A stretch of 64,000 nt of DNA from Methanomicrobia archaeon (lineage in GTDB: Archaea > Halobacteriota > Syntropharchaeia > Alkanophagales > Methanospirareceae), in the NCBI GenBank assembly GCA_016930255.1, contig JAFGHB010000022.1, positions 14,989 through 78,988 of the forward strand, read 5' to 3'. The position numbers and the translations under genes were made by a program. The notes beneath the pieces were generated by a model. The model did not search any database. It was given only the letters and a program-made list of their open reading frames with translations, and had not been told where the DNA came from. The first letter of the stretch is position 1, and each line of letters starts with the position of its first letter. Below, one piece after another: positions 12,946 to 55,394 of the stretch.

Positions 12946-14160
12946 ATGGCTATGGCCGAGTCAGCATCAAGCCGAGAACCGAAAGCGCAGCGAAACGGTC
13001 AATTGCTCTTATTCTCCACGCTCTTCCTCGTCTACAGCGTCGTTATTGGCGCGGTCATCACGATTCATCCCCTGTATCTGGAGCACTTTCTCGAAAAGCC
13101 GGAATTAGTAGGGCTCGTTGCGGCGCTCTCCTCGCTTGCCGGGATGCTCTTCAGCCTTCCCGCTGGTGTGCTCGCCGACAAACTCGGCCGGAAACGCTTG
13201 CTAATTGCTTCGTTCTTGCTCCTCGCGGCCGTACTTGTGGCGTTTTTCATCAATACAAGCCTGTACGCGTTAATCGGACTGCAACTAGCATTTGGGATGG
13301 CCATGGCGCCCGCATGGGTGATCAGCGAGGCGTTTATCAAGGATATTTCACCGAAAGGCCGGCGAGGCGAGTTCAGGTCCTTCTTTGGCACCTTCGCCAA
13401 TGCCGGCCTGTTTACAGGCCCCATCATCGGAGGGTTCCTCGCGGACCGATTCGCACTACGAACCCCGTATATCTTCTCCGCGCTGCTGCTCCTTGCGTCC
13501 TTAACACTGATCCTCAAATTACGCGATAATACCGGTAATCGGCGTGGAAACACCACTAACAACGAAACAGGTAAGGACGAATTGTTAGCAGTACTCAAAG
13601 AGTTCCGGGCGCATCGAGAGCTTATGGTTCTGGCGCTCTGCACCGTTGCACTCTTCTTCTGGTATTCTGCTCGCTGGGTCTTCGGGCCGCTGTTCCTCGA
13701 ACGCCTGGGCTACAGCCCCTTTATCATCGGGCTCTGGATCGGTGTTTCCGGCGCTCCGTACCTCTTTTTCCAAATACCGCTGGGTAAATTAGGCGATAAA
13801 ATCGGGAAAACCAGACTGATCTGTCTTGGCTTCGCTATCTCGACGATATTCATTATTCCCTTAGGATTCCTGCAGTCGCTTCCCAGCCTCTTACTAACCG
13901 TCTTTATCATATCGCTCGGCACGACCCTGGTCGAGCCGTTACTCGAGGCGCGCGTCACGGATATCGTGCCACGGGAACGATATGGTGCTTACTCCGGCAT
14001 CTTCGAACTTGCCAAGACCACCGGGGTCATGATAGGCCCGGTAAGTTCATCGCTCTTCGTTTTCCTGTTCGGCATCTCGTATTCCTTCTTACCCGCCGTT
14101 ATCTTCTTCATCCTGACCCTAGCACTTTTTCTCTACACGCGCCAATCGGTATGTACGTAA
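12946..14160 (+). CDS. MFS transporter
   Basis: Twelve predicted TM helices and the MFS signature LADKLGRKRLL between TM2 and TM3. The track ORF starts at 12646 but that start overlaps the phosphatase; an in-frame ATG at 12946 is the likely start. Confidence 0.8.
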   Translation: MAMAESASSREPKAQRNGQLLLFSTLFLVYSVVIGAVITIHPLYLEHFLEKPELVGLVAALSSLAGMLFSLPAGVLADKLGRKRLLIASFLLLAAVLVAFFINTSLYALIGLQLAFGMAMAPAWVISEAFIKDISPKGRRGEFRSFFGTFANAGLFTGPIIGGFLADRFALRTPYIFSALLLLASLTLILKLRDNTGNRRGNTTNNETGKDELLAVLKEFRAHRELMVLALCTVALFFWYSARWVFGPLFLERLGYSPFIIGLWIGVSGAPYLFFQIPLGKLGDKIGKTRLICLGFAISTIFIIPLGFLQSLPSLLLTVFIISLGTTLVEPLLEARVTDIVPRERYGAYSGIFELAKTTGVMIGPVSSSLFVFLFGISYSFLPAVIFFILTLALFLYTRQSVCT

Positions 14161-15015: not shown

Positions 15016-15288
15016 TTATTTTAAAACGTAACCGATGATTGCACCAAAAATCCCGTAAACTACTGCTGAGATGATTAACTCGCAGTGTGGGTACATAAAC
15101 AATGAGCTGATATAGCCTAAACCAAAACGAGCGAAGAAACGCACTAAAAATAGTGAGATGGCACTAATATGTCCTGTTACCAATGTGATAGCTGTACCAA
15201 TCACGCCGACTGCACCGCCTATTATCGCGCCTATCTGCCACGATTTCAACTTTTTTAACCAATATCTCTTTCCCATTTTAGCCCTCAA
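15016..15288 (-). CDS. small membrane protein, hypothetical
   Basis: 90 aa, two hydrophobic helices, overlaps the upstream gene by 11 nt. Confidence 0.35.
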   Translation of the reverse strand: MRAKMGKRYWLKKLKSWQIGAIIGGAVGVIGTAITLVTGHISAISLFLVRFFARFGLGYISSLFMYPHCELIISAVVYGIFGAIIGYVLK

Positions 15289-15802
15289 GAAGATCAGGAT
15301 AAGCTCTGATCACAGTGCTCTCAGCTTTTAATAGGTTCAGTGTGTCTTCGATCTCTTTATACTGCACATTCTCATCAAATTCGATGTATATCCATTCAAC
15401 TTCTTTTGCCTCCAGCGAGTATTTATCAAGATGCTCTTGAAGTTCCGTTATACTATATTCTCTATCATCTTTACCGAAACAATTTTCGAAGAAAACAAAT
15501 ATGTCTTCATCTTCCCGTTTTACTGCCGTGAGTTCTATCCGTTCCTCTTCCAATAAAGTCTCCTTTAACGTGTTAAACTCGGCCACGGGGATTACGGCGT
15601 AATAAAGCGGGCTGATCCAGTATACTCTTTTTGCGGTAAATGATACCGGTAGGTTCTCGCGCAAAAGCTCTTCGGTCCCAGACGTAATGTTATCATCTTT
15701 CAAACCTAAACGAATCCCACCAGCGTAAAGTCTACCCTCATACGTGTTCACTGCTATCACCCAAATAACGGCTGCTATGAGTACCAACACTACTACAATC
15801 AC
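15278..15802 (-). CDS. hypothetical N-terminally membrane-anchored protein
   Basis: 174 aa with one N-terminal TM helix followed by an acidic extracytoplasmic domain. Confidence 0.45.
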   Translation of the reverse strand: MIVVVLVLIAAVIWVIAVNTYEGRLYAGGIRLGLKDDNITSGTEELLRENLPVSFTAKRVYWISPLYYAVIPVAEFNTLKETLLEEERIELTAVKREDEDIFVFFENCFGKDDREYSITELQEHLDKYSLEAKEVEWIYIEFDENVQYKEIEDTLNLLKAESTVIRAYPDLLEG

Positions 15803-15893
15803 TAGATTTTTTTGTTCATGCCCTTTAATCCGCCTATCTTTACCTATTTCTTCTTCTCACTATATACCTGAACCAATAACGCCAATCGCACTC

Positions 15894-16313
15894 CTATCCC
15901 CGTCGCCTTCCACGGTATTTTACGAAAACTACCACCAACGATAGAAACACACATCCTGCCAGAATCCATAATAATATCGTTGTATTCGTAAAAATATCGT
16001 AAAAAGTATCACATAGTGATGGTTCGGGGCTTTCAGCCACGATAATCTCCCAACCATCGATCATCTCGTGGTGTAACCGCTCGTTCTCTGGTGTACGCTC
16101 GTAAACCCAGAGGGTAACTCTATATATTGACCTGTCTATGTCAGACGCAGCGATTTTCATCTCAGGGTCCTCTTTCCAGTTCTCTATTTGATCCCTGATC
16201 CAGGCTGCTTCTTCATCAGTTGCCGGTTCCGGAGCTAAGGTGGGTGCTGAACCGAGAGCGATACCTGTTGCTAGCACTGCTAAGATGATACCAATCGCAC
16301 ATAGCTCTTTCAT
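15894..16313 (-). CDS. small secreted/membrane-anchored protein. It carries the same C-terminal domain as the 16685-17629 gene product.
   Basis: Signal peptide, then MKIAASDIDRSIYRVTLWVYERTPENERLHHEMIDGWEIIVAE, then a C-terminal TM helix plus RGRRRG. The domain is shared with the 16685-17629 gene. Confidence 0.5.
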   Translation of the reverse strand: MKELCAIGIILAVLATGIALGSAPTLAPEPATDEEAAWIRDQIENWKEDPEMKIAASDIDRSIYRVTLWVYERTPENERLHHEMIDGWEIIVAESPEPSLCDTFYDIFTNTTILLWILAGCVFLSLVVVFVKYRGRRRG

Positions 16314-16400
16314 CTTCTTCTATCACTCCCTAATGTTTTATAAGTGCTTATTATTTACCTTATGTTTATTTTTGTTGATATTACTCTCATCCTCTTTATT

Positions 16401-16440
16401 TCTATAAAAAGGGAAAAAAGCTAACCTCTAAAGAGGTTAG
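16401..16440 (-). terminator. intrinsic-terminator-like hairpin followed by a T-tract (minus-strand sense)
   Basis: Perfect 10-bp inverted repeat GCTAACCTCT-AA-AGAGGTTAGC at 16419-16440, followed on the minus strand by TTTTTTCCCTTTTT. It lies downstream of the 16685-17629 gene. Confidence 0.5.
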
Positions 16441-16516
16441 CAAAAATTGTCGTAGCTCCTTACCCCCGATGTTTTAAAGTATCATTCATTTTTTCTCTTT
16501 GTGTCTTCTTATTCCA

Positions 16517-16640
16517 TTGGTCTGGTAGAGTCTTCGGCCACAATGATGTTCCAGCCATCGATCATCTCGCCGTGTAATCGCTCGTTCTCTGGTGTACGCT
16601 CATAAACTCAAAGGACAACCATCTTTTCCGCGTGATATAT
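16517..16640 (-). pseudogene. decayed fragment of the paralogous secreted-protein C-terminal domain
   Basis: The minus-strand translation ...VYERTPENERLHGEMIDGWNIIVAEDSTRPME is homologous to the C-terminal domain of the two flanking genes. It has an in-frame TGA in place of the conserved Trp and no start codon. Confidence 0.45.
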
Positions 16641-16684
16641 TGCAGTCGTGCTAATTCGCGTCTCCAGCATTTCTTATAATTCCC

Positions 16685-17629
16685 CTATTGCATCATATTT
16701 GTCTCAGCGGTGATCTCTGGTGACTTTTGGTCTTCTGCCACAATTATTTCCCATCCATCGATCATCTTTCTATGCAGTTGTTGGTTCTCCGATGTACGCT
16801 CATAAACCCACAGAGTAACTCTTTTTATCCCTCGGTCTATGTCCCATGCAGCAATTTGCATTTTGGGATTCTCTTTTAGGTCTTTTATCTTGGATTTCAT
16901 CAAAGCTACGTCATCATCGGTCACTTGAGCCAAACTTATCTTACTACTTGATACGTTACAATTTTCATCTATATACCAGGAATAAGAGGTAGTCGCATCT
17001 ATGTTGTCGCAACCGACATCGTTAGTGCTCTGAACTAAAACATACGTATCGTCCGTATCAGTGCCACAGGGCATCTGCCAATCCCCAGGCTCGATATCGT
17101 CCTCTCTATACTGAAAGAACCGCCAGTTATCAAAGTCACTCGTGCTGCCTCCCTCGTGCTCTGCGCAGACCGCATGATAAAATTCGAGATCGTTATTCCC
17201 TATGTAAGTATAATACACCGGGTCATCCTGACTTCCGTCATCCCAATCGGGATAGCAGTGCTCTGGATAAATGGCACTCCATTGCCAATAGCACTGCTCT
17301 ATTTCATCCTCAAAAGCCGGCGCGTATTGACTCTCTCCTGACCACCGTATAATCGCATTGTGCCTACACACTGCATCATTCCAGCTTTCCGATCCTCCCT
17401 GGCAATCGGATTGTCCACCTCGATAGTCCTCTATTACACCGGTCACGTATCCCCTAGATTCAATATCTAGATTTTCATCGATTACCTTACCGCCACATCC
17501 ACATCCTTCACATTCTGCTTCGGCTGTTTGGGAATCTCCTAGATAGAGTTGTGTAGATCCTAGAGCTACACCTGTTGCTATCACTACTAAAACACCAATC
17601 GTCCAAATCTTAGTCATCATTTTTTCCAC
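16685..17629 (-). CDS. Cys-rich acidic secreted protein with a C-terminal DIDR...LWVYERT...MIDGWEIIVAE domain
   Basis: Signal peptide (KIWTIGVLVVIATGVALGS), many Cys (CEGCGCGG...), and a C-terminal domain paralogous to the 15894-16313 product. It lies immediately downstream of conserved leader element copy A. Confidence 0.5.
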   Translation of the reverse strand: MEKMMTKIWTIGVLVVIATGVALGSTQLYLGDSQTAEAECEGCGCGGKVIDENLDIESRGYVTGVIEDYRGGQSDCQGGSESWNDAVCRHNAIIRWSGESQYAPAFEDEIEQCYWQWSAIYPEHCYPDWDDGSQDDPVYYTYIGNNDLEFYHAVCAEHEGGSTSDFDNWRFFQYREDDIEPGDWQMPCGTDTDDTYVLVQSTNDVGCDNIDATTSYSWYIDENCNVSSSKISLAQVTDDDVALMKSKIKDLKENPKMQIAAWDIDRGIKRVTLWVYERTSENQQLHRKMIDGWEIIVAEDQKSPEITAETNMMQ

Positions 17630-17640
17630 ATCACCCCCTA

Positions 17641-18045
17641 ACTTTTTTGGGTACTTATAAAGCGCCCCTCCTCGGCGCTTCGCCTTCCTTCTGCGGCTTT
17701 TCGCCCGTCAGGGATTCGCACCCTGTACGGGCCTCTCCTGCTTTTTTCTACACCTCATCTTCGCGCTCCTGAGCGCGAAATGTTGTGAGTTGTTTCAGCT
17801 TTAACTTAGTTAATAACCTATAGCACATTTATTATTAACCGTTGCCAATATTGCCGAAGGAAATCAATATTAGCTAACGCTGTCAGTGATCTGCACACCA
17901 AATAAGTTTCCTATAATCAGCCACGAGACTATCTCTGAGGAATCGGCCGATTCACAGAGGATCTTGGTGATCCCCATAGATTTCACCTTTAGAAGGAGGG
18001 AGGATAATTAACAAGCTTTCTTTCCTTTCCGCTTCCATAAAATTA
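17641..18045 (-). repeat. conserved leader element, copy A: promoter, structured 5' UTR and RBS shared by four operons
   Basis: Near-identical over ~200 nt to the copies at 20150, 22281 and 23645, and a further ~200 nt are shared with the 23645 copy. It contains the hairpin GCCCGTCAGGGATTCGCACCCTGTACGGGC (17703-17732), the palindrome TCGCGCTCCTGAGCGCGA, and GCGCC-CCTCCTC-GGCGC. The last reads, in mRNA sense, as an SD-like GAGGAGG in a hairpin loop. Confidence 0.7.
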
Positions 18046-18172
18046 TCCACCTTTGCTGCTCAAGCGCCCCTCCTCGACGCTCACTAATCACATCGTTCAA
18101 CCCCTGATAAAACCATCTTTTCGTTCACATTCGCCGAACGAAAAGCGAAGGTTTAAATAAAAATTGTATTTT

Positions 18173-19006
18173 CTACTCTTCACTGGCTGGTGAAGGAGTC
18201 AAAAGCGATTTCTCCCATTGATGCCCAACGTTGATAACTTCCCCCTGTTCAATGTCAACGAAAACCATTAATGTGACATTTCCTATTTTTATCGGAACTA
18301 CCGGGACTTCACCTGAAAAGTTCTCTTCGGGACCCGCTATCTCAATATGTGCTTTGCTTACATCCCCTATTTCGTATTCCTTGTTACGTATTTCTGCCCT
18401 AACCCGTTCATCCTTTAATGCAATTGCTATTGCATATCCCCTATCTTCTTCGCTTAAGTCGTGCTGCGGAGGCATCTCACCGTGCGTCAGATCTATTTCC
18501 GTAGCTAGCCCCCCGAAACGCTCCCATCGCCATTCTCCGTAATAAGGGTGCGGGGTAGCAAAATATCTTTTCCAATGAGCTTCTACTTGCACATCGTAGC
18601 TTTTACCGGCTTTTAAATCGAACGTATACTCAAAATGATAGGGTTGTCGATACTGTAACGTTATGTTTTCTGAGGAAGTTACCTCACGATCTCTACTATT
18701 AGGCACTCCAGCAAGCACGAGAATTCTCACGGGTAGGTCATCAGGCAGTGGTTCATCTTTGCTTGAACTTGAATACAGTGAGGAATCTTTATAGCGATAG
18801 GTAACATCTCCGGATAACGCCACCCGGTCCGTCGTTTCGTTGATACGAGTAACGTCCGTCCAGTTTAAATGCTCGATGTAGATATTACTATCTGGATTAC
18901 TGATTATGATGAGGTTCGTATGGAATAAAAGAAGATAGAGGACAATCAATACCGGAACGCCAACGGCAATGATTGCCTCAATGATATTCTTATTTCTTGT
19001 TCTCAT
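18173..19006 (-). CDS. hypothetical membrane-anchored protein; second gene of the peptidase operon
   Basis: 277 aa with one N-terminal TM helix. It overlaps the upstream peptidase gene by 17 nt. Confidence 0.45.
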   Translation of the reverse strand: MRTRNKNIIEAIIAVGVPVLIVLYLLLFHTNLIIISNPDSNIYIEHLNWTDVTRINETTDRVALSGDVTYRYKDSSLYSSSSKDEPLPDDLPVRILVLAGVPNSRDREVTSSENITLQYRQPYHFEYTFDLKAGKSYDVQVEAHWKRYFATPHPYYGEWRWERFGGLATEIDLTHGEMPPQHDLSEEDRGYAIAIALKDERVRAEIRNKEYEIGDVSKAHIEIAGPEENFSGEVPVVPIKIGNVTLMVFVDIEQGEVINVGHQWEKSLLTPSPASEE

Positions 19007-20138
19007 TTTTACTCTTCTGTTCCTTAACAGACGTAAACGTATCCGTTAGACCACTCGTCATCTCCGCATATATTCTCGTATACATTCTCTTCGAAGTTAA
19101 AAGATGCCTGCCTTGCCAATCGTACCATGACATCAAGTTTGTGCCCGTCCAGGTATTTGGGTCCCACAACGCGAAATTTTGCTGAGTGTCGTGATACCCA
19201 CGTACAACAACGGCATGACAGTTCCCCCACTGGCTCTCCTCGGTTATATAAAGTGGCCATTCGGTGTTTATTCTCTGCATTACGTGATTTATAGTACTCA
19301 GTAGTGAGCCCTGGTAATCGCCTTTATAGCAAGGAACATCGACTTCGTCGAAGTAAAGTTCTGCTTCTGTGGGAGACATCGGAGCATAACCATTCCATAC
19401 CCAAATGTCCCAGATATCTGGAGAATTGCTATTCCAATACTCTTCAAGCATTGCCGCACAGGTCTCACCACACGCTCTGCTGGCAGCATCGTAACCATGT
19501 CCATCGTAATACAACTCCCACTGACTACGCTGTGGTACATCAAGATATTTAGATCCTCTTGCGTCCATTGGTTGATCTGGATCATGAACGACCTCATCAA
19601 TCAGACCGTCTGAAGTACCGCGAAAAGCTACCTCATACTTCGTCTCATCAATAACTACTGATCCATGCAAGCCCCCGATACTATCTTCGAAGAATTCACC
19701 TTTGAGGGAAATCTGATTGCTCTTGTCGCTTAATTCGACGGCACACGCATACATTCTTGTAGCACCTTCATATCTTGTCATCGTTTTACCATGGAGATCC
19801 CTGTAAATCGGCTTAGCATCTTTGGGGACATTCCATCCCACGAAAATTTTCTCTGCTTTCCCTTCAAGATCCACGGCGTATGGCGTATCATCAATGGTAA
19901 TTGTACCTGCGAGCAAAAGGCAATTCTTCCCATCAATGGTACCGGATAGATACGCCTGAGCTGTTCTGTCCCCAGAAGGCTCGATTACTAGACCTCCTGG
20001 CTTATCTAAGCATAAAGTAATCTGCTTGCTTGTAGTAGCAGTTGATGCCGCATATTCTTTGGTCTGATCCTGAGCTATGGCCAGCCCGACACTGCATATC
20101 AGTATCCCTATTACGCCTATTACCCATATCTTCTTCAT
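18990..20138 (-). CDS. secreted papain-like cysteine peptidase, C39-like (Peptidase_C39_2-type)
   Basis: Signal peptide. The catalytic-Cys motif CGETCAAMLEEYW and the downstream His motif GNCHAVVVRGY resemble C39-like peptidase domains. Confidence 0.55.
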   Translation of the reverse strand: MKKIWVIGVIGILICSVGLAIAQDQTKEYAASTATTSKQITLCLDKPGGLVIEPSGDRTAQAYLSGTIDGKNCLLLAGTITIDDTPYAVDLEGKAEKIFVGWNVPKDAKPIYRDLHGKTMTRYEGATRMYACAVELSDKSNQISLKGEFFEDSIGGLHGSVVIDETKYEVAFRGTSDGLIDEVVHDPDQPMDARGSKYLDVPQRSQWELYYDGHGYDAASRACGETCAAMLEEYWNSNSPDIWDIWVWNGYAPMSPTEAELYFDEVDVPCYKGDYQGSLLSTINHVMQRINTEWPLYITEESQWGNCHAVVVRGYHDTQQNFALWDPNTWTGTNLMSWYDWQGRHLLTSKRMYTRIYAEMTSGLTDTFTSVKEQKSKNENKK

Positions 20139-20149
20139 CTTCTTCTAGC

Positions 20150-20460
20150 ACTTCCTAATTTTTGGTATTTCGCAAGCGCCCCTCCTCGGTGCCGCGCTTT
20201 CCTTCTTCGCCTTTTCGCCCGTCAGGGATTCGCACCCTGTACGGGCCTCTCCTGCTTTTTTCTACACCTCGTCTTCGCGCTCAGGAGCGCGAAATGCTGT
20301 GGCTTGTTTCAGCTTTAGATGATGAAATAATCTATAGCATATTTATTATTAACTGTGTTCGATATTACCGATAGAACTCAATATTAGCGAGTGCTTGCGG
20401 TGACCTGTACGTCAAACGAGTTCCTTATAATCTAGTGCATATTCTTTCAAACCTTTTTGA
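20150..20460 (-). repeat. conserved leader element, copy B
   Basis: Same GC-rich core as copies A and D, including the GCCCGTCAGGGATTCGCACCCTGTACGGGC hairpin and the TCGCGCTCAGGAGCGCGA palindrome (its centre is inverted relative to copy A). It sits directly 5' of the peptidase gene. Confidence 0.7.
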
Positions 20461-20528
20461 CGCTTTTTGAATGACGTCCGGTGAAAAAACGTTCGCCAAT
20501 CGAGTGATAGGAAAAATAAAAGGGGGAG

Positions 20529-21503
20529 TTAGTAAACCACCCCCAACGATTCCAGCTCTTCAGCTTGCACCGCGAGCACATAGTCGTGAAACGGCTCTTC
20601 CCTCCCTTCTGAATCAATGACCGTTCCAGTGAATGCGTATACCGGCAGAACAAAATCTTGTTTCGTTATTCGCGGTTCCATCCAATATCCAATGGATATC
20701 TCGTTGATAGTTGCTCGATCTGCCATCATCTCCAACGGTGGTTGTACACGGTTCTCGCCGGCAATTAGCTCTTTATATGCTTCTTCCGGTGTCTTTAGTG
20801 AAATTTCTCTGTAGGGCTCTATCGCTCTCCAATTCATTACTATTTCATGGACTTCACTATTATTACCTATGATCACTGCTAATTCATCGTGGCCATATAC
20901 TGGTAGGCCGTTGACGCTTCGAGAAAACCGCACGGCTAAGGACACATCGTAGGATATGATGGGTTCACTTGAACCCGCTCTCCAAATCTCGTATGTTTCA
21001 GAAACGCCCACATTTTTGAACTCTGCGTCTTCGGGCAATAGTTTTCTGGTCGAAAGATAGTCAGAAGCGATCTCCTTTGCATCGTTTTCGGATGGTAGGA
21101 TGGGCTGAGAGTCGACAGAAGCGGGATACTCCTTATAATACTGGATAGCTCCCGAAGCCTTATAAACGGTTACTTGCTTTCTTGTCCCTTCCGCCTCATC
21201 TACTAGACGAATCTTATCGTTTATACGAAGCTCTGCATTTTCAGTCAACCCAAATGTTCTACCAATGCCCTTTACGTAGTCGCTTGTAACCTCTGGAGTT
21301 ACCGTTTTATATACAAGATATGAATCACGTATCTCCGGAAAGGTGGCATTCAGCACGAATGTTGTTTCAGCACCTTCCTCGGACGGAGGGAATAGACCGG
21401 GAACCGCGTTAGTTCCTGTGTGCTCAACCCAAACCGTTGCAGCCGCAAATAGCACTGCTACCGTGACGACTATCCCTAAGATTACCCATAGTTTTTGTGT
21501 CAT
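20529..21503 (-). CDS. hypothetical membrane-anchored extracytoplasmic protein
   Basis: 324 aa, N-terminal TM, second gene after the 21519-22274 lipoprotein-like gene. Confidence 0.45.
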   Translation of the reverse strand: MTQKLWVILGIVVTVAVLFAAATVWVEHTGTNAVPGLFPPSEEGAETTFVLNATFPEIRDSYLVYKTVTPEVTSDYVKGIGRTFGLTENAELRINDKIRLVDEAEGTRKQVTVYKASGAIQYYKEYPASVDSQPILPSENDAKEIASDYLSTRKLLPEDAEFKNVGVSETYEIWRAGSSEPIISYDVSLAVRFSRSVNGLPVYGHDELAVIIGNNSEVHEIVMNWRAIEPYREISLKTPEEAYKELIAGENRVQPPLEMMADRATINEISIGYWMEPRITKQDFVLPVYAFTGTVIDSEGREEPFHDYVLAVQAEELESLGVVY

Positions 21504-21518
21504 TTTTTTTCTTCAATC

Positions 21519-22274
21519 CTAACTGCAACTATATGTCCACGTAGTATACCCTGAATTTACGGTTGGATCGGCGATAACAGAACCTTCACCCCAGATGTGG
21601 TCGTTCCCGCATGCTGAATTTTCGCCGATTATCCGTACCGTGTAATCTGAGCCATGTGTCTCGTCGATAGCGTGATACCACGCGTCTTTAACCGTCTCTC
21701 CGTCTAATAGATTATCTGCAAAATTACCGCCATCAACACAGTTCAGTGAAGAGGTTGTAAATCCACAGATCAAATGCACCCCATTGAGACCATAGTGGCT
21801 ACCCTTAAACCTATCTGGCTTTTCTGTTGAGTGACAGCCATGTAAGGCAATCCACTCCAAATCGTGATCTCCCCATTCGATCTCGTTGAAAAAACTCACC
21901 CACTTCGTATAGGTTGAAAGCTCCAGTCTGTTATTTTGCGCATGCCCCTGGTACCAGGCAATGTCGACACCATCGATGTACGTGGAATCTTGCCCATCGT
22001 GTTGAAAGTGCTCTTCTTTCGTGTTAGTATTACCTTTATCAAATTTTCGAGTCCAGCCAGCACTGCCCAATCCATTATAAAATGCTTTAGCGGAATCATC
22101 ACTATTTGGGAGATCACTGTGGGGCCAGCTATAATCTGTCACCCATTCAATGCCCACCTCAGGGGAGGTAGCATCGTTATCATCACCAGTCCCCGCAGTA
22201 GCACATGACATGAGAACCACCGAACTTACTGCTAGTATCAACGAAAGCTTCAAGCACACTGCTCTTCTTTTCAT
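21519..22274 (-). CDS. hypothetical secreted lipoprotein-like protein with conserved His/Cys motifs
   Basis: Signal peptide ending LMSCATAG; motifs IALHGCHS and GVHLICGF; no family recognised. Confidence 0.45.
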   Translation of the reverse strand: MKRRAVCLKLSLILAVSSVVLMSCATAGTGDDNDATSPEVGIEWVTDYSWPHSDLPNSDDSAKAFYNGLGSAGWTRKFDKGNTNTKEEHFQHDGQDSTYIDGVDIAWYQGHAQNNRLELSTYTKWVSFFNEIEWGDHDLEWIALHGCHSTEKPDRFKGSHYGLNGVHLICGFTTSSLNCVDGGNFADNLLDGETVKDAWYHAIDETHGSDYTVRIIGENSACGNDHIWGEGSVIADPTVNSGYTTWTYSCS

Positions 22275-22280
22275 TTATAA

Positions 22281-22355
22281 CACCTCCTAATTTTTTGGGT
22301 ATTTATAAAGCGCCCCTCCTCGGCGCCTCGCCTTCCTTCTGCGGCTTTTCGCCCC
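22281..22355 (-). repeat. conserved leader element, copy C (truncated to ~75 nt)
   Basis: CACCTCCTAATTTTTTGGGTATTTATAAAGCGCCCCTCCTCGGCGCCTCGCCTTCCTTCTGCGGCTTTTCGCCCC matches the gene-proximal part of copies A and D and then diverges. Confidence 0.65.
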
Positions 22356-22386
22356 TTCTTTGATATTTGATATTCTAAAGTTTGGC

Positions 22387-22785
22387 CTACACAACTAGCA
22401 TTATCCACAAAATAGCACCTATAATGACAAGAAAAAATCCGAGTTTTTTGTTACTATTTATTAGTATAGCTCCAGTTCCTATAATACTGAGACAAATACC
22501 CGAGTATATCCAAAATCTAAATACTACTCCAAATACAATAATATCGTACATGAAAAGGAGCATAAATGGGAGAAAGCTCACCGCTAGCACCGAAGGTATT
22601 TTACGAGACCACCCGCTATAAATTCCAACTATGAGTGGTAATGCAATTCGTCCGATTTGCGCGTAAAGCGGTCCATATTTTGGAGATATTTGCAATATTA
22701 CGGGGAAAAAAGGAAAGAGGAGGACTATAAAAAATACTAACAAAGTTAGTACCACGCTCCTCCATTTTATATGTTCATACTTCAT
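22387..22785 (-). CDS. hypothetical small polytopic membrane protein (AT-rich)
   Basis: 132 aa, four hydrophobic helices, AT-rich codon usage. Confidence 0.45.
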   Translation of the reverse strand: MKYEHIKWRSVVLTLLVFFIVLLFPFFPVILQISPKYGPLYAQIGRIALPLIVGIYSGWSRKIPSVLAVSFLPFMLLFMYDIIVFGVVFRFWIYSGICLSIIGTGAILINSNKKLGFFLVIIGAILWIMLVV

Positions 22786-22815
22786 GCGACTCTTCTCCTT
22801 CTATATTTTCATATT

Positions 22816-23637
22816 TCATGCGGTTAACTCGATAACTGGTGCTAACCCGTCGTTATCCCCCAAGTCATCATTGCCTAAGTCGGTATACCAAATATCTCCA
22901 ACGAACCCTTCATCTGCAAAGTCATCCTTTACAAAATCTTCTGCGTCTTCATAGCTGATATATTGGTGTCCCGTTCCCGTCCAACGCTCATAGTGTACGT
23001 TGGCATCACTCCAGTCATCCGCCCAGTGAGGATCTGAATATTCACTGCCGAAAATCCGTATGTGATACCTGTACCCAAAGTAATCACCGTTTTCAAGTTG
23101 ATAGTCTTGCACTTTCCAATAGGCTGTGCCACCATTCGCTGTGTCGTCGATGTACGTCCGCGCTGACCAACCTGTAGCACCATCCCATGTATTATCGATC
23201 CAATTCTGCATGTCATATTGAACATCCCAAGCGTTACCAGTATTATAAAATATCAGATTTATGGGATCATCTTCCACCCCGGGGGCGAGGACATCTTGAT
23301 AAGCCCAAAAATTTATGCATTTCTCGCCGACTTTGACTAGCTTCAACTTGACTTCAATATCATCTGGAGTCTCTTCTAGCTCCTCAGCCCAATCCTTAAT
23401 CGCTTGATTCACCAATTTTTCACCCTTTTCTCCCAAATTCTTTCGAAGGAAATTGAAATGCTCTTCGTTGGCTTCTAAGAATTCTTCCATACTTGGTTTC
23501 TTAATTGTTACGATCTCTTCCCTAATCTCTGAAGGGATCATCTTTTTGTTATTATCTGGAAGAACCGTAGCTGTTGTTGCAGCTATTGCAGTGATTAACA
23601 CCGCTACAACGATTGTCGAGATAAGCGTCTTTTTCAT
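22816..23637 (-). CDS. hypothetical acidic secreted protein
   Basis: 273 aa with a signal peptide (LISTIVVAVLITAIAATTA); rich in D/W/Y. It lies immediately downstream of leader copy D. Confidence 0.5.
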   Translation of the reverse strand: MKKTLISTIVVAVLITAIAATTATVLPDNNKKMIPSEIREEIVTIKKPSMEEFLEANEEHFNFLRKNLGEKGEKLVNQAIKDWAEELEETPDDIEVKLKLVKVGEKCINFWAYQDVLAPGVEDDPINLIFYNTGNAWDVQYDMQNWIDNTWDGATGWSARTYIDDTANGGTAYWKVQDYQLENGDYFGYRYHIRIFGSEYSDPHWADDWSDANVHYERWTGTGHQYISYEDAEDFVKDDFADEGFVGDIWYTDLGNDDLGDNDGLAPVIELTA

Positions 23638-30149: not shown

Positions 30150-31868
30150 GTGAATAGAATGGAGGATAATATACAATCTTCACGGGTGATATTCTTTTTA
30201 GGTGCTGGTGCATCCGTTGCTGCTGGGGTTCCCGATACGTATTCCTTTGTTGAAGAATTTAGAGAGAGTATAAGTGACGCTGCTAAAAAAGAATCAATTA
30301 ATCAAATAATCGAGACTCTAGAGGAGTGGAAAGGATCAGAGATTGACATTGAACTCTTATTAGAGACATTAACAAAACTTGAAAGGAAAGATGAAGAACC
30401 ACTAACATCGTTTTTTAAAGAAGATAAGTTCGCTTTAAGCGATTTAACTCTAATAGAACCATTGATAAAAGATTTGAAAGATTTTATTAAAAGCAAAGCT
30501 ATTGTATCAGAGGAGTCAATAAAATATTTGGAACCAATTCTTGGATTCTTGGAAGAACCTTTAGATATTATATCGGTGAATTATGACACCTGTATAGAGC
30601 AGTTCTGTAATGTTTACAGACGTGTCTATCAGGATGGTTTTGAACTTGAATGGAATCCAAAGACTTTTGCTAAGGAACACACAGATATTCGTCTTTATAA
30701 GTTACATGGATCAGTAATGTGGTATCAAAGCGACAAAGCAGGTTACGTCAAAGTACCTATTAGGACAATGGAAAGCGAAATAGAACTTATTACTCGTGAG
30801 AAAGCTATTAACCTCATGCTTTACCCAATGCAAAAGTGGGATTATGCCGAACCGCTTTTAGAACTGCTCGTGGAGATAAAACATCGTCTTGAGTCAGAAA
30901 CGTGCAAGTTTTTGGTTATCGTGGGGTATTCTTTCAGAGATGAACATATCAGAAGGCTACTTTGGGATGCAGCGAGGAAAAACAAAAAACTCACGTGTAT
31001 ATTGATAGATCCGAAGGCATATCAGATTTACTCTAATAAACTTAAATATTATGATGATGCGTCAAAAATTCCCTCATCATTGTATGAACGTGTTGTTTGT
31101 TTGCCGTATAAATTTGAGAAAGTATTCCCTTCCGTCAAAAATTATTACTTACTCAATCTGCAGAATGGTCTTGGTCGTTATGATTCTTTACGTCAACAAG
31201 AAACCATTGAGGGTAAAAAGATAGACTGGATTGCTTGCATCCCTGAGTTGGTAAATGCAGAACATTGTGAAATAGTAGAGCACTTACTTGATCGAATTAA
31301 TGTAACTAAATTTGAAAGAAATTTAGAATTGAACCTTAATTTGCTACTGAAAATGTTTGTTAATTACTCAGCCAGTAACCAAACAGAGAAGGCAGCTGAA
31401 TATTTCCAAAAATTCATTAGTTTTCTTCAAACAATCTTTGTGGAAAGATTAGATCTAGAGGTTTCGAGAGAGCCTAGATTCCCTTCTATTCTGTGGAATT
31501 GCATTCCCACCGATTCAGGTAGGAGTTATCATGATACGAACCAAATAAAGATATTCATTGAAAATTTGTTTGATTTTTGTAACGAGAGAGTAGAGTGGGT
31601 TCAAGAGTCAAGCGATGATTTTTGGAAGGTTAACGAAACGCTAAACTCACTAAATATATATCTGGAGGAGTTTGTAGATGAAACCAAGGATTTTGGAGCG
31701 TATATTACTCTGAGGACTAAAGAAATAGCGGATGTCGTAGGGGATGTCGAAGAATTTAGAAAAAAATACCAAGGAAAAGCGCTTGCGTCGAATGAAGAAC
31801 AAAATGAGCTGAGATCAAAGATTGTGAACATCGAGAAAAACATTTTAACAGGAATTTTAGGGGAGTAG
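30150..31868 (+). CDS. SIR2-like (SIR2_2/DSR-type) domain protein with an uncharacterised helical C-terminal domain; candidate NAD-consuming defence protein
   Basis: VIFFLGAGASVAAGVP (SIR2 GAGxS motif), IISVNYDTCIEQ (SIR2_2 NYD motif), IRLYKLHGSVMW (SIR2_2 KLHGS motif). It is 572 aa, and the gene plus flanks are distinctly AT-rich. Alternative start ATG at 30159. Confidence 0.65.
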   Translation: MNRMEDNIQSSRVIFFLGAGASVAAGVPDTYSFVEEFRESISDAAKKESINQIIETLEEWKGSEIDIELLLETLTKLERKDEEPLTSFFKEDKFALSDLTLIEPLIKDLKDFIKSKAIVSEESIKYLEPILGFLEEPLDIISVNYDTCIEQFCNVYRRVYQDGFELEWNPKTFAKEHTDIRLYKLHGSVMWYQSDKAGYVKVPIRTMESEIELITREKAINLMLYPMQKWDYAEPLLELLVEIKHRLESETCKFLVIVGYSFRDEHIRRLLWDAARKNKKLTCILIDPKAYQIYSNKLKYYDDASKIPSSLYERVVCLPYKFEKVFPSVKNYYLLNLQNGLGRYDSLRQQETIEGKKIDWIACIPELVNAEHCEIVEHLLDRINVTKFERNLELNLNLLLKMFVNYSASNQTEKAAEYFQKFISFLQTIFVERLDLEVSREPRFPSILWNCIPTDSGRSYHDTNQIKIFIENLFDFCNERVEWVQESSDDFWKVNETLNSLNIYLEEFVDETKDFGAYITLRTKEIADVVGDVEEFRKKYQGKALASNEEQNELRSKIVNIEKNILTGILGE

Positions 31869-50786: not shown

Positions 50787-52355
50787 ATGAGAAAGAAAGA
50801 AGGGTATAAAGATGATTTCATTTTATCATTGGAAGCCGATAGGTGGCTCTTTCATGCGGATCTCCTCGTTGACAAGGCGCACGTGGTGATGCTAAAGGAG
50901 AGGGGGATCATAAAGAAGGAGGGCGCGGCTATTCTGAACTGCTTAGTGGATATAGAGGAGCGCAGCGAGGATTTTATCGAGCACGAGCTTCCCAAATACG
51001 AGGATGTGCACACGGCGATCGAATCGGTGGTGATACGGGAGATAGGCGCGGACGTCGGCGGGCGGATGCATACCGGGCGGTCGCGCAATGACGAAGTGGC
51101 GACGTGCATACGCATAGCGCTCCGTGCTGAGCTGTTCGAGCTGCTGGAGGCGGTGAACGACTTGCGAAGCGCGTTACTCGATAAAGCGGATAAGAATGTC
51201 AATACGCTCATGCCGGGCTACACGCATTTGCAGCATGCACAACCAACCACCTTCGCACACTACGCGTTGGCGCACGCCGATGCGTTCGCTCGCGATTTCG
51301 CACGGCTCATAACCGCATACGAGCGTACGAACGTCAGTCCCCTGGGTGCCGCCGCATTTGCCTCGACGGGTTTTCCGATCGATCGGGATCAAACGGCGAA
51401 GCTGCTCGGGTTCGATTCCGTGCTGGAACACTCGATGGATGCTGTATCCACACGCGATTTCGTCATTGAGTCGATTGCGTGCTTCTCCAATCTGATGACC
51501 AACCTGAGCAGACTGGCGGAAGAGCTTATACTCTGGAGCACGTCCGAGTTCGATCTCATCCGCGTTCCTGAGGACTATGCGACGGGAAGCTCGATCATGC
51601 CGCAGAAACGGAACCAGGACTACGCAGAACTGGTACGTGCGCGAGCAGGCACGGTCCACGGCTGTTTGCTGAGCGTGCTTTCGATCTGCAAAGCGTTACC
51701 CTATTCGTATAATCGGGATTTACAGGAAGTGACGCCGCACCTGCTGCGCGCCGTGAAGACCACGACCGCGTCGGTAGCCGTAATGAAGAGCATGATCCAA
51801 GGCCTGGAAGTGAAGCAGGAGGCGCTGGAGAAGCAGGCGTCACGCGGCTTCACCACGGCAACCGAGCTGGCGGATACGATTGTTCGAGAGACCGGCACGC
51901 CGTTCAGAACCGCGCATAAAATCGTCGCTTCGTTAGCTTCCGTTCTGACGGAAGAGAACTGGGGAGTGCTGACCGATAAGGAGGCTGAGAAAGCGTTCGT
52001 GGCTGAAATCATTCGGATGATAGACGATATCGCTCTGGAGATCACCGGTGAGAAGCTGAGCGAGAAGAAGGGACTGACGGAGAAGAAAGTAGCGGAAGCG
52101 CTGAACATCGCGTCGAACGTGCAGAAACGGCGCGTGAAAGGGGGACCCGCGAAGAAAGAAGTGCAGCGGATGCTCGGCAAGCGGAAAGCGGATCTGGAGA
52201 GGGACGAGAAGGAGCGGCAGGAGAAGGAGGAGCGGGTGAAGAAGAGCCTGGACGAGCTGGACCGCGAGGTGAAGCGGAAGAAGCGCGTTATTACCGTGAT
52301 ACGAAAGCCGAATCCGAACGTCGTCGTCGAACGCATAAAAGAGATGCGAAAATGA
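50787..52355 (+). CDS. argH: argininosuccinate lyase, with a ~40-aa K/E-rich C-terminal extension
   Basis: GRMHTGRSRNDEVATC lyase signature; SIMPQKRN; 522 aa. Confidence 0.85.
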   Translation: MRKKEGYKDDFILSLEADRWLFHADLLVDKAHVVMLKERGIIKKEGAAILNCLVDIEERSEDFIEHELPKYEDVHTAIESVVIREIGADVGGRMHTGRSRNDEVATCIRIALRAELFELLEAVNDLRSALLDKADKNVNTLMPGYTHLQHAQPTTFAHYALAHADAFARDFARLITAYERTNVSPLGAAAFASTGFPIDRDQTAKLLGFDSVLEHSMDAVSTRDFVIESIACFSNLMTNLSRLAEELILWSTSEFDLIRVPEDYATGSSIMPQKRNQDYAELVRARAGTVHGCLLSVLSICKALPYSYNRDLQEVTPHLLRAVKTTTASVAVMKSMIQGLEVKQEALEKQASRGFTTATELADTIVRETGTPFRTAHKIVASLASVLTEENWGVLTDKEAEKAFVAEIIRMIDDIALEITGEKLSEKKGLTEKKVAEALNIASNVQKRRVKGGPAKKEVQRMLGKRKADLERDEKERQEKEERVKKSLDELDREVKRKKRVITVIRKPNPNVVVERIKEMRK

Positions 52356-52493
52356 GCTAGATAGATGGGAATGAAAATTTTTCTGAGTTCTACTTACTGA
52401 ACTCAGATATATTAGTCTTTTATTTATCATCTAGTATACTAAGTTAGTTTACCCGCATGTGTTCGATTATGGTCAAAACTTACGGAAGAGTAT

Positions 52494-55364
52494 TTGGAGA
52501 TGAGTACATACACTAATACTGGAAGCGGATCTGAAAAGCGAATCGTGGAAAAGCTTCAGAACGTACGAATCTTTGTAGCTTCGCCGGGTGACGTAGCAGA
52601 AGAGCGAGAACAGTTGCGAAAGGTTGCTGATAAACTAAACCATTCAATCACGCATGAACTGGGATTCAACTTAGAAGTCGTAGGATGGGAAACTCATGTT
52701 ATTCCCGAAATGGGTGACCGACCGCAGGCAATCATAAATAAACAGATTGACCCGTACGATGTTTTTGTTGGCATCATGTGGAAGAGGTTTGGAACACCTA
52801 CTGGCGAAGCGGAATCGGGAACTGAGGAAGAGTTCAATATCGCTTTTGAATGCCGCAAAAAGTTTGGTATCCCTTGCATCATGTTTTACTTTAACCAAGA
52901 GCCATTCATGCCTCGAACTCAGCATGAGATAAAGCAGTTAGAGAAAGTGATAGAATTTCGAGAGCGTCTGTCTCAAGAAGGGTTAATTTGGGAGTATACA
53001 GGAGCCGAGAGGTTTAAAGATATTGTTGATACACATTTGTCGAAACTTATTGTTCAGTGGAGCAAAAGAGAGGAAGAAGAGACTTCTAAACCTAAAAAAG
53101 AACAAGTGCTTGAACCATATTTCGCCCAGCCATACGCATTGCAGGAGAACTTCGTGGGCAGGCAAAAAGAGCGGGAGTTGCTCTCGGAATGGTTAGAGCA
53201 GGATCCTACGTCTATGCTGGCATTAGTAGCGATTGGCGGTATGGGCAAATCAGCTTTGTCGTGGTACTGGCTTAACGAAGATGTACTGGGAAAAGGCAAG
53301 CAATTCGACGGAGTTGTCTGGTGGTCTTTTTATGATAAAGAAGCGAGTTTTGAAAGGTTTTTAGACAATTCCATACGTTACGCCAGTAGACAGGCGATTG
53401 ACCCCAAAGAGCTAGAATCAATGTGGGATAAGATGCGCGTATTTTTCAAATTATACGGAGAGAGCAATTACCTTGTGGTCCTCGACGGCGTAGAGCGGTT
53501 GCTTAGGGCATATGCCGGCTTGGGATCACCTTATCAGGGAGAGGCTGTAAAGGAGGATGAAAAACAGGAATTCCGTGCCTGTATTGATCCAAATGTAGCG
53601 AAATTTCTTCAATGGCTTTCTGCGGGTTATCCTCAGACTAAAAGCCTTATTACAACACGTCTCTTTCCTAAAGAACTTGAGGGTATTGCTGGATGCCGAT
53701 ATGTAAATCTGGAACGGATGATTAACGAAGATGCCGTCGAATTTTTCCACCGTCAGGGCGTTACCGGCGCACGGGCGGAAATTGAAACGGCTTGTGGTAG
53801 CGTTGATTATCTTCCTCTTTCTCTCCGACTGCTTTCTGGTATGATTGCGAGCGACCCCAAAAATCCAGGGGATATACAGGAATGGCGGAAATACAACCCA
53901 TTGCCTGAATTGAAAGGTAAAGAAGGACACCACATCTTAGATCTCGCTTATAATTCTCTGGATGAACAAAAGCAGAAGTTTATCAGCAGACTTGCGGCGT
54001 TCAGAAACCCGATGGATTACGATGCGGTTTCTATTTTCAACGAGTTTGGCACTGAGGAAAAATTTAATGAGGTTCTGCGTGAACTCGTGGAAAGGGGTTT
54101 AATATTCAGAGACGAGAAAAGCAATAAATTCGATTTGCATCCGATTGTGCGAAGATACTGCTACGAGCGATTAAAAAATAAAGAAAGCATCCATTCAGTG
54201 CTCATGGATTATTTTGCTTATATCCCAGCACCAGAAAAAGTCGAATCAGTGGACGACTTGGCACCAGTTATCGAGCTGTATCACCATACGGTAAGTACAG
54301 GCAAGTATGACGAAGCTATTGATTTATTTGGCAACAGGCTTGCAGCGCCGTTATTTTATGTATTTGGTGCATATCAAGCAAGAATAGAACTGCTTCGTGC
54401 GCTCTTTCCTGATGGCGAGGATAAACCACCAAGATTGAAAGATGAATCTACTCAAGCATGGACGCTGCAAGCACTTGCAAATAGTTACTTAATGTCGGGT
54501 CAGCCTAAAAAAGCCCTCAGAATTTTAGAAACTGCTATTGACCTTGATAAAAAAATTGGAGGGATGAATTGGAAAAAAGTTGGTCTGAATATTCTTGCCT
54601 GGATTCAAATGCAAATCGGGGAACTTGACCTTGCTGAAACAAATCTCAAAAAACAAATTGAATTCTGCCGCGAAATCAAAGACATAATTAGAGAAGCGGT
54701 TGGTCATGCGGAATTAGGCCGATTGTTTGCCTATGAGGGCGAATTCGCGGAATCTCAAGAAGAATTGAATCGAGCACAAAAAGGCGTTGATGATTTTAGG
54801 GAAAAAGGAGGAAGAACAGGGTATATTTCAGTTGTTAGAGCGTACAAATCCATCCGTTCCATTTTTATGTTTAACGCCGACGAGGCTATGAAAGCAGCCA
54901 AAAAAGCCCGTGAACTTGCTGTGATTGACTACACAGAACGAGATGTCATCCAAGCAGAATGCCTCCTCGGAGCCTCCTACTTGATGCAAGAGAATTTAAC
55001 AGAAGCCGAGCAGCATCTATCCGACGCTCTTACGAGAGACCGAAAAATCAATCTCGTGGAATTAGAGCCTGATATTCTGCTGGAGTTTGCTAAACTCAGG
55101 TTTAAACAGAATTACAAGAAAGAAGCGCTGGAAAAGGCGGAAGAAGCGCTGCAGATCGCGGACCGTTGCGAGTACCGGCTGAAGCAGGCTGATATTCACA
55201 ACTTTTTGGCGGCGTTCTATCTGGATGCCGGTGAGGTGGAGAAGGCGAAAGAGCATGCAGAAAAAGCAAAGGAAAGGGCGGAGTGTGGCTACGTTCCAGC
55301 GTTAAAGAAGGCGGAGAAGCTTTTCAAAGAGATCGAACAAAGAAGTAAAGTAAATAAGGGATAA
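52494..55364 (+). CDS. STAND-class NTPase: N-terminal DUF4062-like domain, NB-ARC ATPase, C-terminal TPR array; candidate defence/signalling protein on an AT-rich segment
   Basis: The N-terminus has VRIFVASPGDVAEEREQL...FVGIMWKRFG (DUF4062-like). The NB-ARC domain has Walker A VAIGGMGKSAL, Walker B YLVVLDGVE, SLITTRL (TTR motif) and DYLPLSL (GLPL motif). The C-terminal ~400 aa are TPR-like helical repeats. Low GC. Confidence 0.6.
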   Translation: MEMSTYTNTGSGSEKRIVEKLQNVRIFVASPGDVAEEREQLRKVADKLNHSITHELGFNLEVVGWETHVIPEMGDRPQAIINKQIDPYDVFVGIMWKRFGTPTGEAESGTEEEFNIAFECRKKFGIPCIMFYFNQEPFMPRTQHEIKQLEKVIEFRERLSQEGLIWEYTGAERFKDIVDTHLSKLIVQWSKREEEETSKPKKEQVLEPYFAQPYALQENFVGRQKERELLSEWLEQDPTSMLALVAIGGMGKSALSWYWLNEDVLGKGKQFDGVVWWSFYDKEASFERFLDNSIRYASRQAIDPKELESMWDKMRVFFKLYGESNYLVVLDGVERLLRAYAGLGSPYQGEAVKEDEKQEFRACIDPNVAKFLQWLSAGYPQTKSLITTRLFPKELEGIAGCRYVNLERMINEDAVEFFHRQGVTGARAEIETACGSVDYLPLSLRLLSGMIASDPKNPGDIQEWRKYNPLPELKGKEGHHILDLAYNSLDEQKQKFISRLAAFRNPMDYDAVSIFNEFGTEEKFNEVLRELVERGLIFRDEKSNKFDLHPIVRRYCYERLKNKESIHSVLMDYFAYIPAPEKVESVDDLAPVIELYHHTVSTGKYDEAIDLFGNRLAAPLFYVFGAYQARIELLRALFPDGEDKPPRLKDESTQAWTLQALANSYLMSGQPKKALRILETAIDLDKKIGGMNWKKVGLNILAWIQMQIGELDLAETNLKKQIEFCREIKDIIREAVGHAELGRLFAYEGEFAESQEELNRAQKGVDDFREKGGRTGYISVVRAYKSIRSIFMFNADEAMKAAKKARELAVIDYTERDVIQAECLLGASYLMQENLTEAEQHLSDALTRDRKINLVELEPDILLEFAKLRFKQNYKKEALEKAEEALQIADRCEYRLKQADIHNFLAAFYLDAGEVEKAKEHAEKAKERAECGYVPALKKAEKLFKEIEQRSKVNKG

Positions 55365-55394
55365 GGAAACAAATCCTTAGAAGAGAGAAAGAAA

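Follow-up and report, generated by a model that had tools for sequence, protein, structure and literature searches.

A 64,000-nucleotide stretch of genomic DNA from a Methanomicrobia archaeon (GenBank assembly GCA_016930255.1, contig JAFGHB010000022.1, positions 14,989 to 78,988; hereafter the window) carries, between argH and a small membrane gene, a gene for a protein with an N-terminal DUF4062 domain (the head), a STAND nucleotide-binding oligomerisation domain (NOD) and a C-terminal array of tetratricopeptide repeats (TPR). We propose, at a probability of roughly 0.68, that this gene encodes a single-protein intracellular immune sensor of the NLR/Avs type, whose NADase head would bring about abortive infection in an ANME-1/Methanophagales-related archaeon. 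The initial annotation of this DNA had offered two readings of the protein, an Avs-like antiviral sensor or a regulatory STAND. We favour the former because relatives exchange killing-type heads (nuclease, pore-type, protease and NADase) on the same core and because the locus is hypervariable.

The coding sequence occupies positions 52500..55364 of the forward strand and specifies 954 residues from its ATG, as given by the list of open reading frames (ORFs) and matched exactly by public gene calls. An in-frame TTG two codons 5' of this ATG, at 52494, would give 956 residues, and the frame is uninterrupted from either start. Residues are numbered here on the 954-residue form; the numbering of the initial annotation is higher by two. 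The 954-residue protein is recorded at NCBI, identical in sequence, as MBN1762190.1 ('MAG: DUF4062 domain-containing protein [Methanomicrobia archaeon]'). It was also recovered, unchanged, from a Logan contig that matches the window in gene order: argH, the STAND gene, a gene for a 115-residue membrane protein, minus-strand apgM, a CBS gene and radA. The motifs quoted in the initial annotation (IFVASPGD, GGMGKSAL, LVVLDGVE, SLITTRL and DYLPLSL) were all located in the translation, and its placement of the gene between argH and the membrane gene, with apgM next, agrees with this order.

The head (residues 20-196; 52557..53087, + strand) is a DUF4062/TIR-like domain and a predicted NADase effector, composed of five parallel strands alternating with helices and followed by a long C-terminal helix. 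Pfam DUF4062 (PF13271) aligned to residues 25-117 over model positions 1-82 of 82, scoring 39.5 bits against a gathering cut-off of 24.7, and the IFVASPGD motif lies at residues 24-31. Structural prediction, which the initial annotation had recommended for this region, returned a confident TIR-like model of the flavodoxin type (AlphaFold2, built on 64 homologues; predicted local distance difference test (pLDDT) score 91.2). The earlier assignment of the N-terminal ~190 residues to DUF4062 is thus upheld by both the Pfam score and the fold. A Foldseek search with the head model was uninformative.

The idea that DUF4062 serves as an effector module is now backed by experiments on other DUF4062 proteins, described in two 2026 preprints, which identify the domain as a TIR-like NADase yielding ADP-ribose and nicotinamide and place this activity in phage defence that depends on the catalytic Glu. 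Swarozyc (KpSwz) and Evangelion (Eva01) are reported to be DUF4062 NADases that act by abortive infection; the former is activated by the phage portal and has E97 as its catalytic residue, and the key residues of the latter are F11 and E87-Y88. Human TEP1 is an active NADase via E1008, and an explicit check for other ADP-ribose (ADPR) derivatives found only ADP-ribose and nicotinamide. Archaeal proteins are absent from those assayed in both preprints. The best PDB sequence match of the window head was the DUF4062 domain of KpSwz, a weak match at E 0.14 (single-sequence phmmer). In this alignment, SGTEEEF (residues 106-112) stands opposite SFTEKAF of the KpSwz E97A construct, the alanine being the substituted E97. 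We therefore predict that E111-F112 is the catalytic pair and that E111 corresponds to KpSwz E97 and Eva01 E87; the choice of E111 over E109 or E110 rests on this one pairwise alignment. The predicted catalytic motif, S106-G-T-E-E-E111-F112 (52815..52835, + strand), is situated at the start of helix alpha-C. Conservation reached at least 90% for F25, W63-E64 and E109-F112 among the 64 head homologues, so that the N-terminal aromatic and the W/E motif of the DUF4062 family are present as well, and E-[YF] was retained in 51 of the 51 DUF4062 heads found on the same NOD-TPR core. A profile of the 64 homologues matched none of the PDB sequences, probably because it was diluted by unrelated C-terminal extensions.

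It is unlikely that the protein is a defence STAND whose head acts otherwise than by bulk depletion of NAD+. Such a head might generate a nucleotide signal, for example a product of the cyclic ADP-ribose type as in Thoeris and plant TIRs, or might attack another N-glycosidic substrate (nucleotides, nucleosides or nucleic-acid bases) in the manner of nucleoside 2-deoxyribosyltransferase-like enzymes. The characterised DUF4062 enzymes, however, gave only ADP-ribose and nicotinamide, and the window gene is without a partner gene able to read a signal.

The PADLOC candidate PDC-S60 also matched the head (E 8.7e-43), over model positions 5-182 of 906 only. The first ~180 positions of this model therefore represent the same DUF4062 subtype, already flagged as a phage-defence candidate, while the rest of the model is unrelated to the window NOD-TPR core. 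A literature search on PDC-S60 and PDB 9H2L found nothing useful. Among short proteins of bacteria (for example P0124, P0161, P0197 and P0239) the same ~180-residue subtype, with its SGTEEEF motif, is widely distributed, and its fusion partners there are another TIR-like domain (PF10137/PF13676), GGDEF or various small modules. This distribution suggests that the STAND family recruited its head from such a pool.

The remainder of the protein is a genuine STAND NOD with a TPR array, nearest to archaeal PH0952 and next to Apaf-1. Its nucleotide-binding domain (residues 206-395; 53115..53684, + strand, as are all features of the core), delimited by motifs, alignment, model and Foldseek, contains Walker A GGMGKSAL (residues 246-253, including Lys250; 53235-53258), Walker B LVVLDGVE (residues 325-332; 53472-53495) and the sensor-1-like SLITTRL (residues 382-388; 53643-53663). 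The helical and winged-helix domains that follow (residues ~396-585; 53685..54254) have approximate limits taken from the model and match those of PH0952 in the family-profile search (E 7.5e-12). They include the GxP-type DYLPLSL (residues 436-442; 53805-53825) and DLHPIVRRY (54132-54158), which carries the conserved winged-helix His at an MHD/LHD-like position. The Walker A Gly and Lys, the Walker B Asp and Glu, the T..R of sensor 1, the PL of GxP and both the H and the P of DLHPIVRRY were invariant in a 42-sequence family alignment. The earlier label of NB-ARC ATPase is best regarded as approximate: the motifs and a STAND NOD are present, but Pfam NB-ARC (PF00931) scored 21.6 bits against a cut-off of 23.5 (model positions 6-109 of 248), and PH0952 is the nearest relative of known structure. 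One relative, P0062, scores above this cut-off at 26.5 bits. Pfam NACHT gave no match in the query, and NPHP3_N reached only E 0.16.

The model of the core had a pLDDT of 83.4, with most of the TPR array above 90. Foldseek aligned it over its full length to PH0952 of Pyrococcus horikoshii (PDB 6MFV; E 4.8e-15, 739 columns), followed by Apaf-1, Avs3, CED-4 and MalT domain III. A single-sequence search of PDB with the core found nothing; a family profile was needed, and this recovered PH0952 at E 7.5e-12. Sequence identity to PH0952 is only ~16%. The PH0952 clade has been described as sister to APAF1, and the PH0952 structure is that of an ADP-bound closed state in which the TPR sensor touches the nucleotide-binding domain. 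The arm and TPR sensor array of the window protein (residues 586-954, ~17 helices; 54255..55361) were delimited from Pfam TPR matches and the model. Pfam TPR_12 and TPR_MalT, both above threshold, and the core model agree with the C-terminal TPR sensor array that had been annotated, and structural matches to the region include LGN/Pins, MalT domain III and AfsR. Conservation across the family was uneven. Taken in blocks of 30 residues, identity to the query was highest (0.70-0.75) in the NOD, in the winged helix and in the final ~90 TPR residues, the TPR cap being residues 831-920 (54990-55259), and lowest (0.35-0.5) in the central TPRs (residues 681-800; 54540-54899).

These matches bear on the proposal that the protein is a non-immune regulatory STAND, in which the TPRs would sense a cellular or environmental cue and tune NAD+/ADP-ribose metabolism or signalling. 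Analogues would be MalT, AfsR and PH0952-type regulators, together with non-immune eukaryotic DUF4062-STANDs such as NPHP3. PH0952, the closest solved structure, is predicted to be a transcription factor, its effector being of the ArsR-like DNA-binding kind, and both TPR_MalT and AfsR models match the sensor. The window protein, in contrast, has no DNA-binding or other regulatory output domain, and we consider such a role quite unlikely given what relatives carry at the position of the head.

The 120 best full-length matches were 51-100% identical to the query. Clustering of their heads identified DUF4062 of at least three subtypes in 53, short two-transmembrane (2TM) modules in 32, an HNH nuclease in 14, an Mrr_cat restriction-endonuclease fold in one and two unassigned modules in six. 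The HNH heads exceeded the Pfam threshold for HNH_2 and matched the HNH model of ZorE in PADLOC. All forms with a head other than DUF4062 align to the query only from a sharp junction at residue ~206. The core that they share is 57-65% identical between archaeal and bacterial members. Named hosts include Methanophagales/ANME-1, Altiarchaeales and Zixibacteria, and a bacterial host was confirmed by a 401-kb contig with PorV and multihaem cytochromes.

When 1.84 billion cluster representatives were searched with just the NOD, 635 matches had E ≤ 1e-30. Among the 137 best-covered of these, 41 had a DUF4062 N-terminus and 22 formed one cluster, in which TIR_2 and a bacterial Death-like domain (bDLD1) were identified in the two representatives scanned. 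Others in this set are headed by metallophosphoesterase, trypsin-like protease, alpha/beta-hydrolase, Mrr, PNP_UDP_1, CHAT, caspase, HNH or transmembrane modules. Relatives with such diverse heads are 37-68% identical to the query NOD. This repertoire is typical of NLR/Avs-type conflict systems. In a 2026 survey that divided STANDs into 589 clades, 198 of them defence-associated, effectors of this kind are one of the two criteria for calling a clade defensive. Defence and non-defence clades are interspersed in the published STAND phylogeny, which would leave room for a regulatory protein. Set against a regulatory role, however, the relatives' heads are HNH and Mrr nucleases, 2TM modules, caspase, CHAT and trypsin-like domains or Death-like adaptors, that is, cell-killing or immune-adaptor functions. 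A further arrangement was seen in P0062 and P0048 (L017 3766-7560), double STANDs of ~1265 residues in which an nSTAND1 NTPase (Pfam E 2.6e-53) precedes DUF4062 and the NOD-TPR core, placing two NTPase switches within one polypeptide.

The second line of evidence comes from the chromosomal position of the gene. Its GC content is 0.439 overall and 0.425 at third codon positions (GC3), compared with 0.562 and 0.706 for argH and 0.563 and 0.651 for apgM, so that the gene is AT-rich relative to both, as first noted in the initial annotation. The GC3 of flanking genes ranges from 0.59 to 0.71, and the mean over the 59 ORFs of the window is 0.560 (sd 0.10). Related loci of the ANME-1 type were recovered by scanning 185,579 species genomes with argH and metagenomes with the membrane gene. 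Alignment by blastn to the closest relative, L002, showed 89.3% identity up to 52396, 88.3% from 55392 and 69% in between, with breaks in homology at 52396/52397 and 55391/55392. These breakpoints, together with GC content (0.41-0.46 inside, 0.52-0.58 outside), define a variable low-GC cassette at 52397..55391. Relative to L027 the left break falls at 52374. Both left breakpoints coincide with a short hairpin just 3' of the argH stop codon (52376..52413, + strand; an inverted repeat with 15-nt arms and an 8-nt loop), which lies at the left edge of the cassette and is possibly the end of the argH transcript. A scan for promoters and terminators of the bacterial type, which is ill-suited to archaea, gave counts no higher than the shuffled expectation.

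Five lineages were found to hold distinct contents at this slot, four of them with a STAND gene. In L027, whose flanks are 85.8% identical at the nucleotide level, a DUF4062-STAND gene (P0002) is 79.6% identical to that of the window, encodes a protein 78% identical over its full length and is followed by a gene for a 153-residue protein and the membrane gene; it and the window gene are orthologous alleles of one slot. In the closest relative (L002 and L026; flanks 88-89%) the STAND is 2TM-headed, with a core 69% identical in nucleotides and 64% in amino acids, and is followed by genes of 68 and 153 codons. This allele has an in-frame stop codon where the window has Gln (EEAL-stop-IADRCEY; L002 14063-14068), and homology continues in frame beyond it. 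The stop is identical in two independent assemblies. L025, with a 115-residue membrane protein 90% identical in amino acids, has a further STAND allele cut by the contig end and again followed by the 68- and 153-codon genes. Finally, L012 and L024 (flanks 79-80%) retain the upstream region and a 2TM head only, fused to unrelated sequence and followed by the 153-codon gene; this remnant is a 177-residue ORF (L012 9761-10294) with weak likeness to a PADLOC 2TM effector. Throughout, slot alleles keep a GC of 0.44-0.45 against 0.52-0.56 in the flanks.

The slot is an old hotspot at which alleles are exchanged, including by head swaps, truncated and lost, rather than the site of a recent one-off insertion, since no fewer than four related lineages have a STAND of the same family there, among them one with an orthologous DUF4062 allele. 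Comparison across related genomes, for which the initial annotation had called, showed slot contents that vary between these lineages and an atypical GC3, not the conserved core-genome position with typical GC that the initial annotation had named as refuting its reading. The view that the gene was acquired as a single-gene island fits its foreign composition and sharp boundaries, but has to be qualified, because the same slot is held by a STAND in at least four lineages and no att sites or mobility genes accompany it. Direct or inverted repeats flanking the cassette were considered as att sites or target duplications and rejected: they amounted to 12-13-nt matches inside coding sequence, judged to be chance. 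No tRNA that might have served as an integration target lies nearby (the only tRNA of the window is at 42118), and the window ORF list shows no mobility gene in the cassette.

That the gene lies amid housekeeping genes and is kept at one slot in several lineages would also suit a regulatory STAND; allele replacement, a nonsense allele, a remnant and foreign composition at the locus argue otherwise. The same observations could be read as signs of decay, the window gene being an inactive relic of a once-functional cassette. The closest relative has a genuine premature stop, another lineage keeps only an N-terminal 2TM piece, and the window lineage has itself suffered a small deletion directly downstream of the gene, removing the 153-codon gene (window 55348-55391 versus L027 3095-3637). 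Against this, the window ORF is open over 954 codons, all the invariant residues checked are retained (the catalytic Glu, the Walker A Lys, the Walker B Asp and Glu, GxP and the winged-helix His) and the protein is 78% identical to the L027 allele along its length. We therefore regard a relic as highly improbable.

The 153-codon gene, of host-like GC, lies between the STAND and membrane genes in L002, L012, L025 and L027, with 85-92% amino acid identity among relatives and no PADLOC match. Both it and the 115-residue membrane protein were rejected as system partners on account of host-like GC, flank-like conservation and the lack of PADLOC matches, as well as the absence of the 153-codon gene from the window. 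L002 itself is GenBank DATKXZ010000013.1, labelled 'Desulfobacteria bacterium', yet its archaeal radA, CDP-archaeol synthase, apgM and other genes are 83-96% identical in amino acids to those of the window. It is almost certainly a mis-binned archaeal contig of the ANME-1 type, and the 'Desulfobacteria' label on P0110 is unreliable. The upstream neighbour argH (50787-52355) encodes a Lys/Glu-rich C-terminal extension of ~65 residues beyond the usual enzyme (52150-52355, …KKEVQRMLGKRKADLERDEKERQEKEERVKKSLDELDREVKRKKR…), which is kept in L002 and L012.

Six neighbourhoods of family members with their own context were read, a handful of loci to which no statistics were applied; a seventh (P0002) is the same slot as that of the window. 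Three of the six contained toxin-antitoxin, MNT, SIR2_2, Mrr or transposase genes, or tandem paralogues. On one contig of the ANME-1 type, two tandem DUF4062-STAND paralogues are flanked on one side by a BrnT/CopG toxin-antitoxin pair and on the other by an MNT-type nucleotidyltransferase. A second variable hotspot was noted in Methanophagales, upstream of fructose-bisphosphate aldolase, phosphofructokinase and FTR (L017 198-7878; L028 1506-11577). In one genome it holds a DUF4062-STAND, SIR2_2, an nSTAND1-DUF4062-STAND and MNT, and in the other two transposases, CopG, a DUF4062-STAND and a 455-residue Mrr_cat protein. Two bacterial members are single genes amid mostly housekeeping genes, one with an Mrr gene nearby. 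These neighbourhoods are suggestive of a defence association of the family, and the adjacency of its members to toxin-antitoxin, SIR2, Mrr and transposase genes tells further against a regulatory STAND. In L019, a NUDIX hydrolase gene (12930-13427) begins 23 bp after the stop codon of P0013, a close DUF4062-STAND homologue; the hydrolase may act as a partner, processing ADP-ribose or a different nucleotide product.

Several observations weigh against an immune sensor with a NADase head. No Avs or other STAND defence model of PADLOC 2023 matches the NOD-TPR core of the query, nor those of six relatives, at E ≤ 0.01, save generic TPR models. The window neighbours are all housekeeping genes, with no mobility gene, att-like repeat or adjacent defence gene among them, and no relative of the family was found in the viral contigs of IMG/VR with the two patterns used. 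The nearest solved relative is, as described above, predicted to regulate transcription. For a sensor engaged in an arms race, the NOD and TPR cap are unusually conserved (57-65% between archaea and bacteria), and strong conservation across domains of life would be in keeping with a regulatory STAND. Lastly, three of the four human DUF4062-STAND proteins (NWD1, NWD2 and NPHP3) were without NADase activity when assayed alone in vitro, so a DUF4062 head is no guarantee of activity.

If the protein is an immune sensor, its cycle may be sketched by analogy with PH0952, Apaf-1 and Avs proteins. At rest it would be a closed, ADP-bound monomer, with the TPR array folded back onto the nucleotide-binding domain. 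A ligand, most likely a viral protein, would bind the TPR array, the variable central repeats being the candidate surface. Binding would lift autoinhibition, permit exchange of ADP for ATP and cause the NOD to oligomerise. The oligomer would bring the N-terminal DUF4062 heads together, which, by homology with KpSwz, Eva01 and TEP1, would then hydrolyse NAD+, giving ADP-ribose plus nicotinamide. The resulting depletion of NAD+ would presumably stop or kill the infected cell before the virus finishes its cycle.

Among the known systems that come closest, Avs/bNACHT proteins (Avs1-5 and Avs7-21) likewise combine an N-terminal effector, a STAND NOD and a large C-terminal sensor of the TPR type in a single gene. 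They too swap effectors on a conserved NOD-sensor at variable loci, and Avs3 is among the structural matches of the window protein. In contrast to characterised Avs proteins with Cap4, Mrr, SIR2 or TIR effectors, the window protein has a DUF4062 head and a PH0952/APAF1-like NOD and belongs to an uncultured archaeon. Swarozyc and Evangelion share with it the PF13271 head, the TIR-like fold and the catalytic Glu-aromatic motif. They differ in consisting of DUF4062 and a short auxiliary region with no ATPase (in KpSwz a helix-turn-helix/winged-helix module that binds the phage portal), whereas the window head is mounted on ~750 residues of STAND NOD and TPR; the marginal KpSwz match covers the head only. 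PH0952, also archaeal, is the best structural and sequence match of the NOD-arm-TPR core but differs in its effector and in its low sequence identity.

In the human proteins TEP1, NWD1, NWD2 and NPHP3, DUF4062 is likewise placed directly N-terminal of a STAND NTPase, after which come repeats of the TPR type in NPHP3 and of the WD40 type in the other three. Their NTPase, however, has been described as NACHT, whereas the NOD of the window protein matches NB-ARC, PH0952 and Apaf-1. Direct descent from or to the human proteins was rejected on this ground, and because the NTPase modules differ, the common architecture looks like parallel assembly rather than orthology.

The window contains other compositionally foreign genes. 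A second low-GC single gene (30150-31868, + strand; 572 residues, GC 0.356, GC3 0.325) encodes SIR2_2 (Pfam E 4e-11) and matches PADLOC 'Aga_SIR2 class II' at E 5e-33, with no Argonaute-sized ORF adjoining. This, too, is probably a defence gene that targets NAD and was inserted amid genes of host GC. A 342-residue ORF (10884-11912, + strand; GC 0.295, GC3 0.283) without a Pfam or PADLOC match is likewise a foreign single gene by composition. On the minus strand, a run of ~9 ORFs at 15278-23637 has GC 0.36-0.46 against a host value of ~0.53 and looks like a larger foreign island; it includes Peptidase_C39_2 (18993-20138) and DUF6345 (21522-22274), the rest being without a Pfam match.

DUF4062 NADases and STANDs acting in defence, the DUF4062 label at NCBI and the PADLOC candidate for the head subtype are already known. 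What is new is an uncharacterised NOD-TPR family with cross-domain spread, its natural series of head swaps and a documented archaeal hotspot. Since the NOD and TPR cap are 57-65% identical between ANME-1 or Altiarchaeales and Zixibacteria-type bacteria while heads exchange freely, one might further suppose that the family is a single cross-domain pattern-recognition receptor, sensing either some fold conserved among head-tailed viruses, which infect archaea as well as bacteria, or, instead of a protein specific to viruses, a danger signal universal to cells. We put this forward tentatively and hold it to be rather unlikely. If true, it would imply a common cue in hosts of anoxic sediments and provide a tractable prokaryotic model for a STAND-switched DUF4062 NADase. 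The locus itself offers an intact archaeal case in which E111 and K250 are obvious targets for mutation, and it comes with natural variants that bear other heads on a single conserved sensor. Its study could help to explain how STAND oligomerisation activates a DUF4062 head, a question that bears on human NWD1, NWD2, NPHP3 and TEP1. Knowledge of innate immunity is sparse for ANME-1, uncultured archaea of importance to methane cycling, and the locus extends it by revealing a small chromosomal hotspot where immune-type alleles are replaced, truncated and lost.

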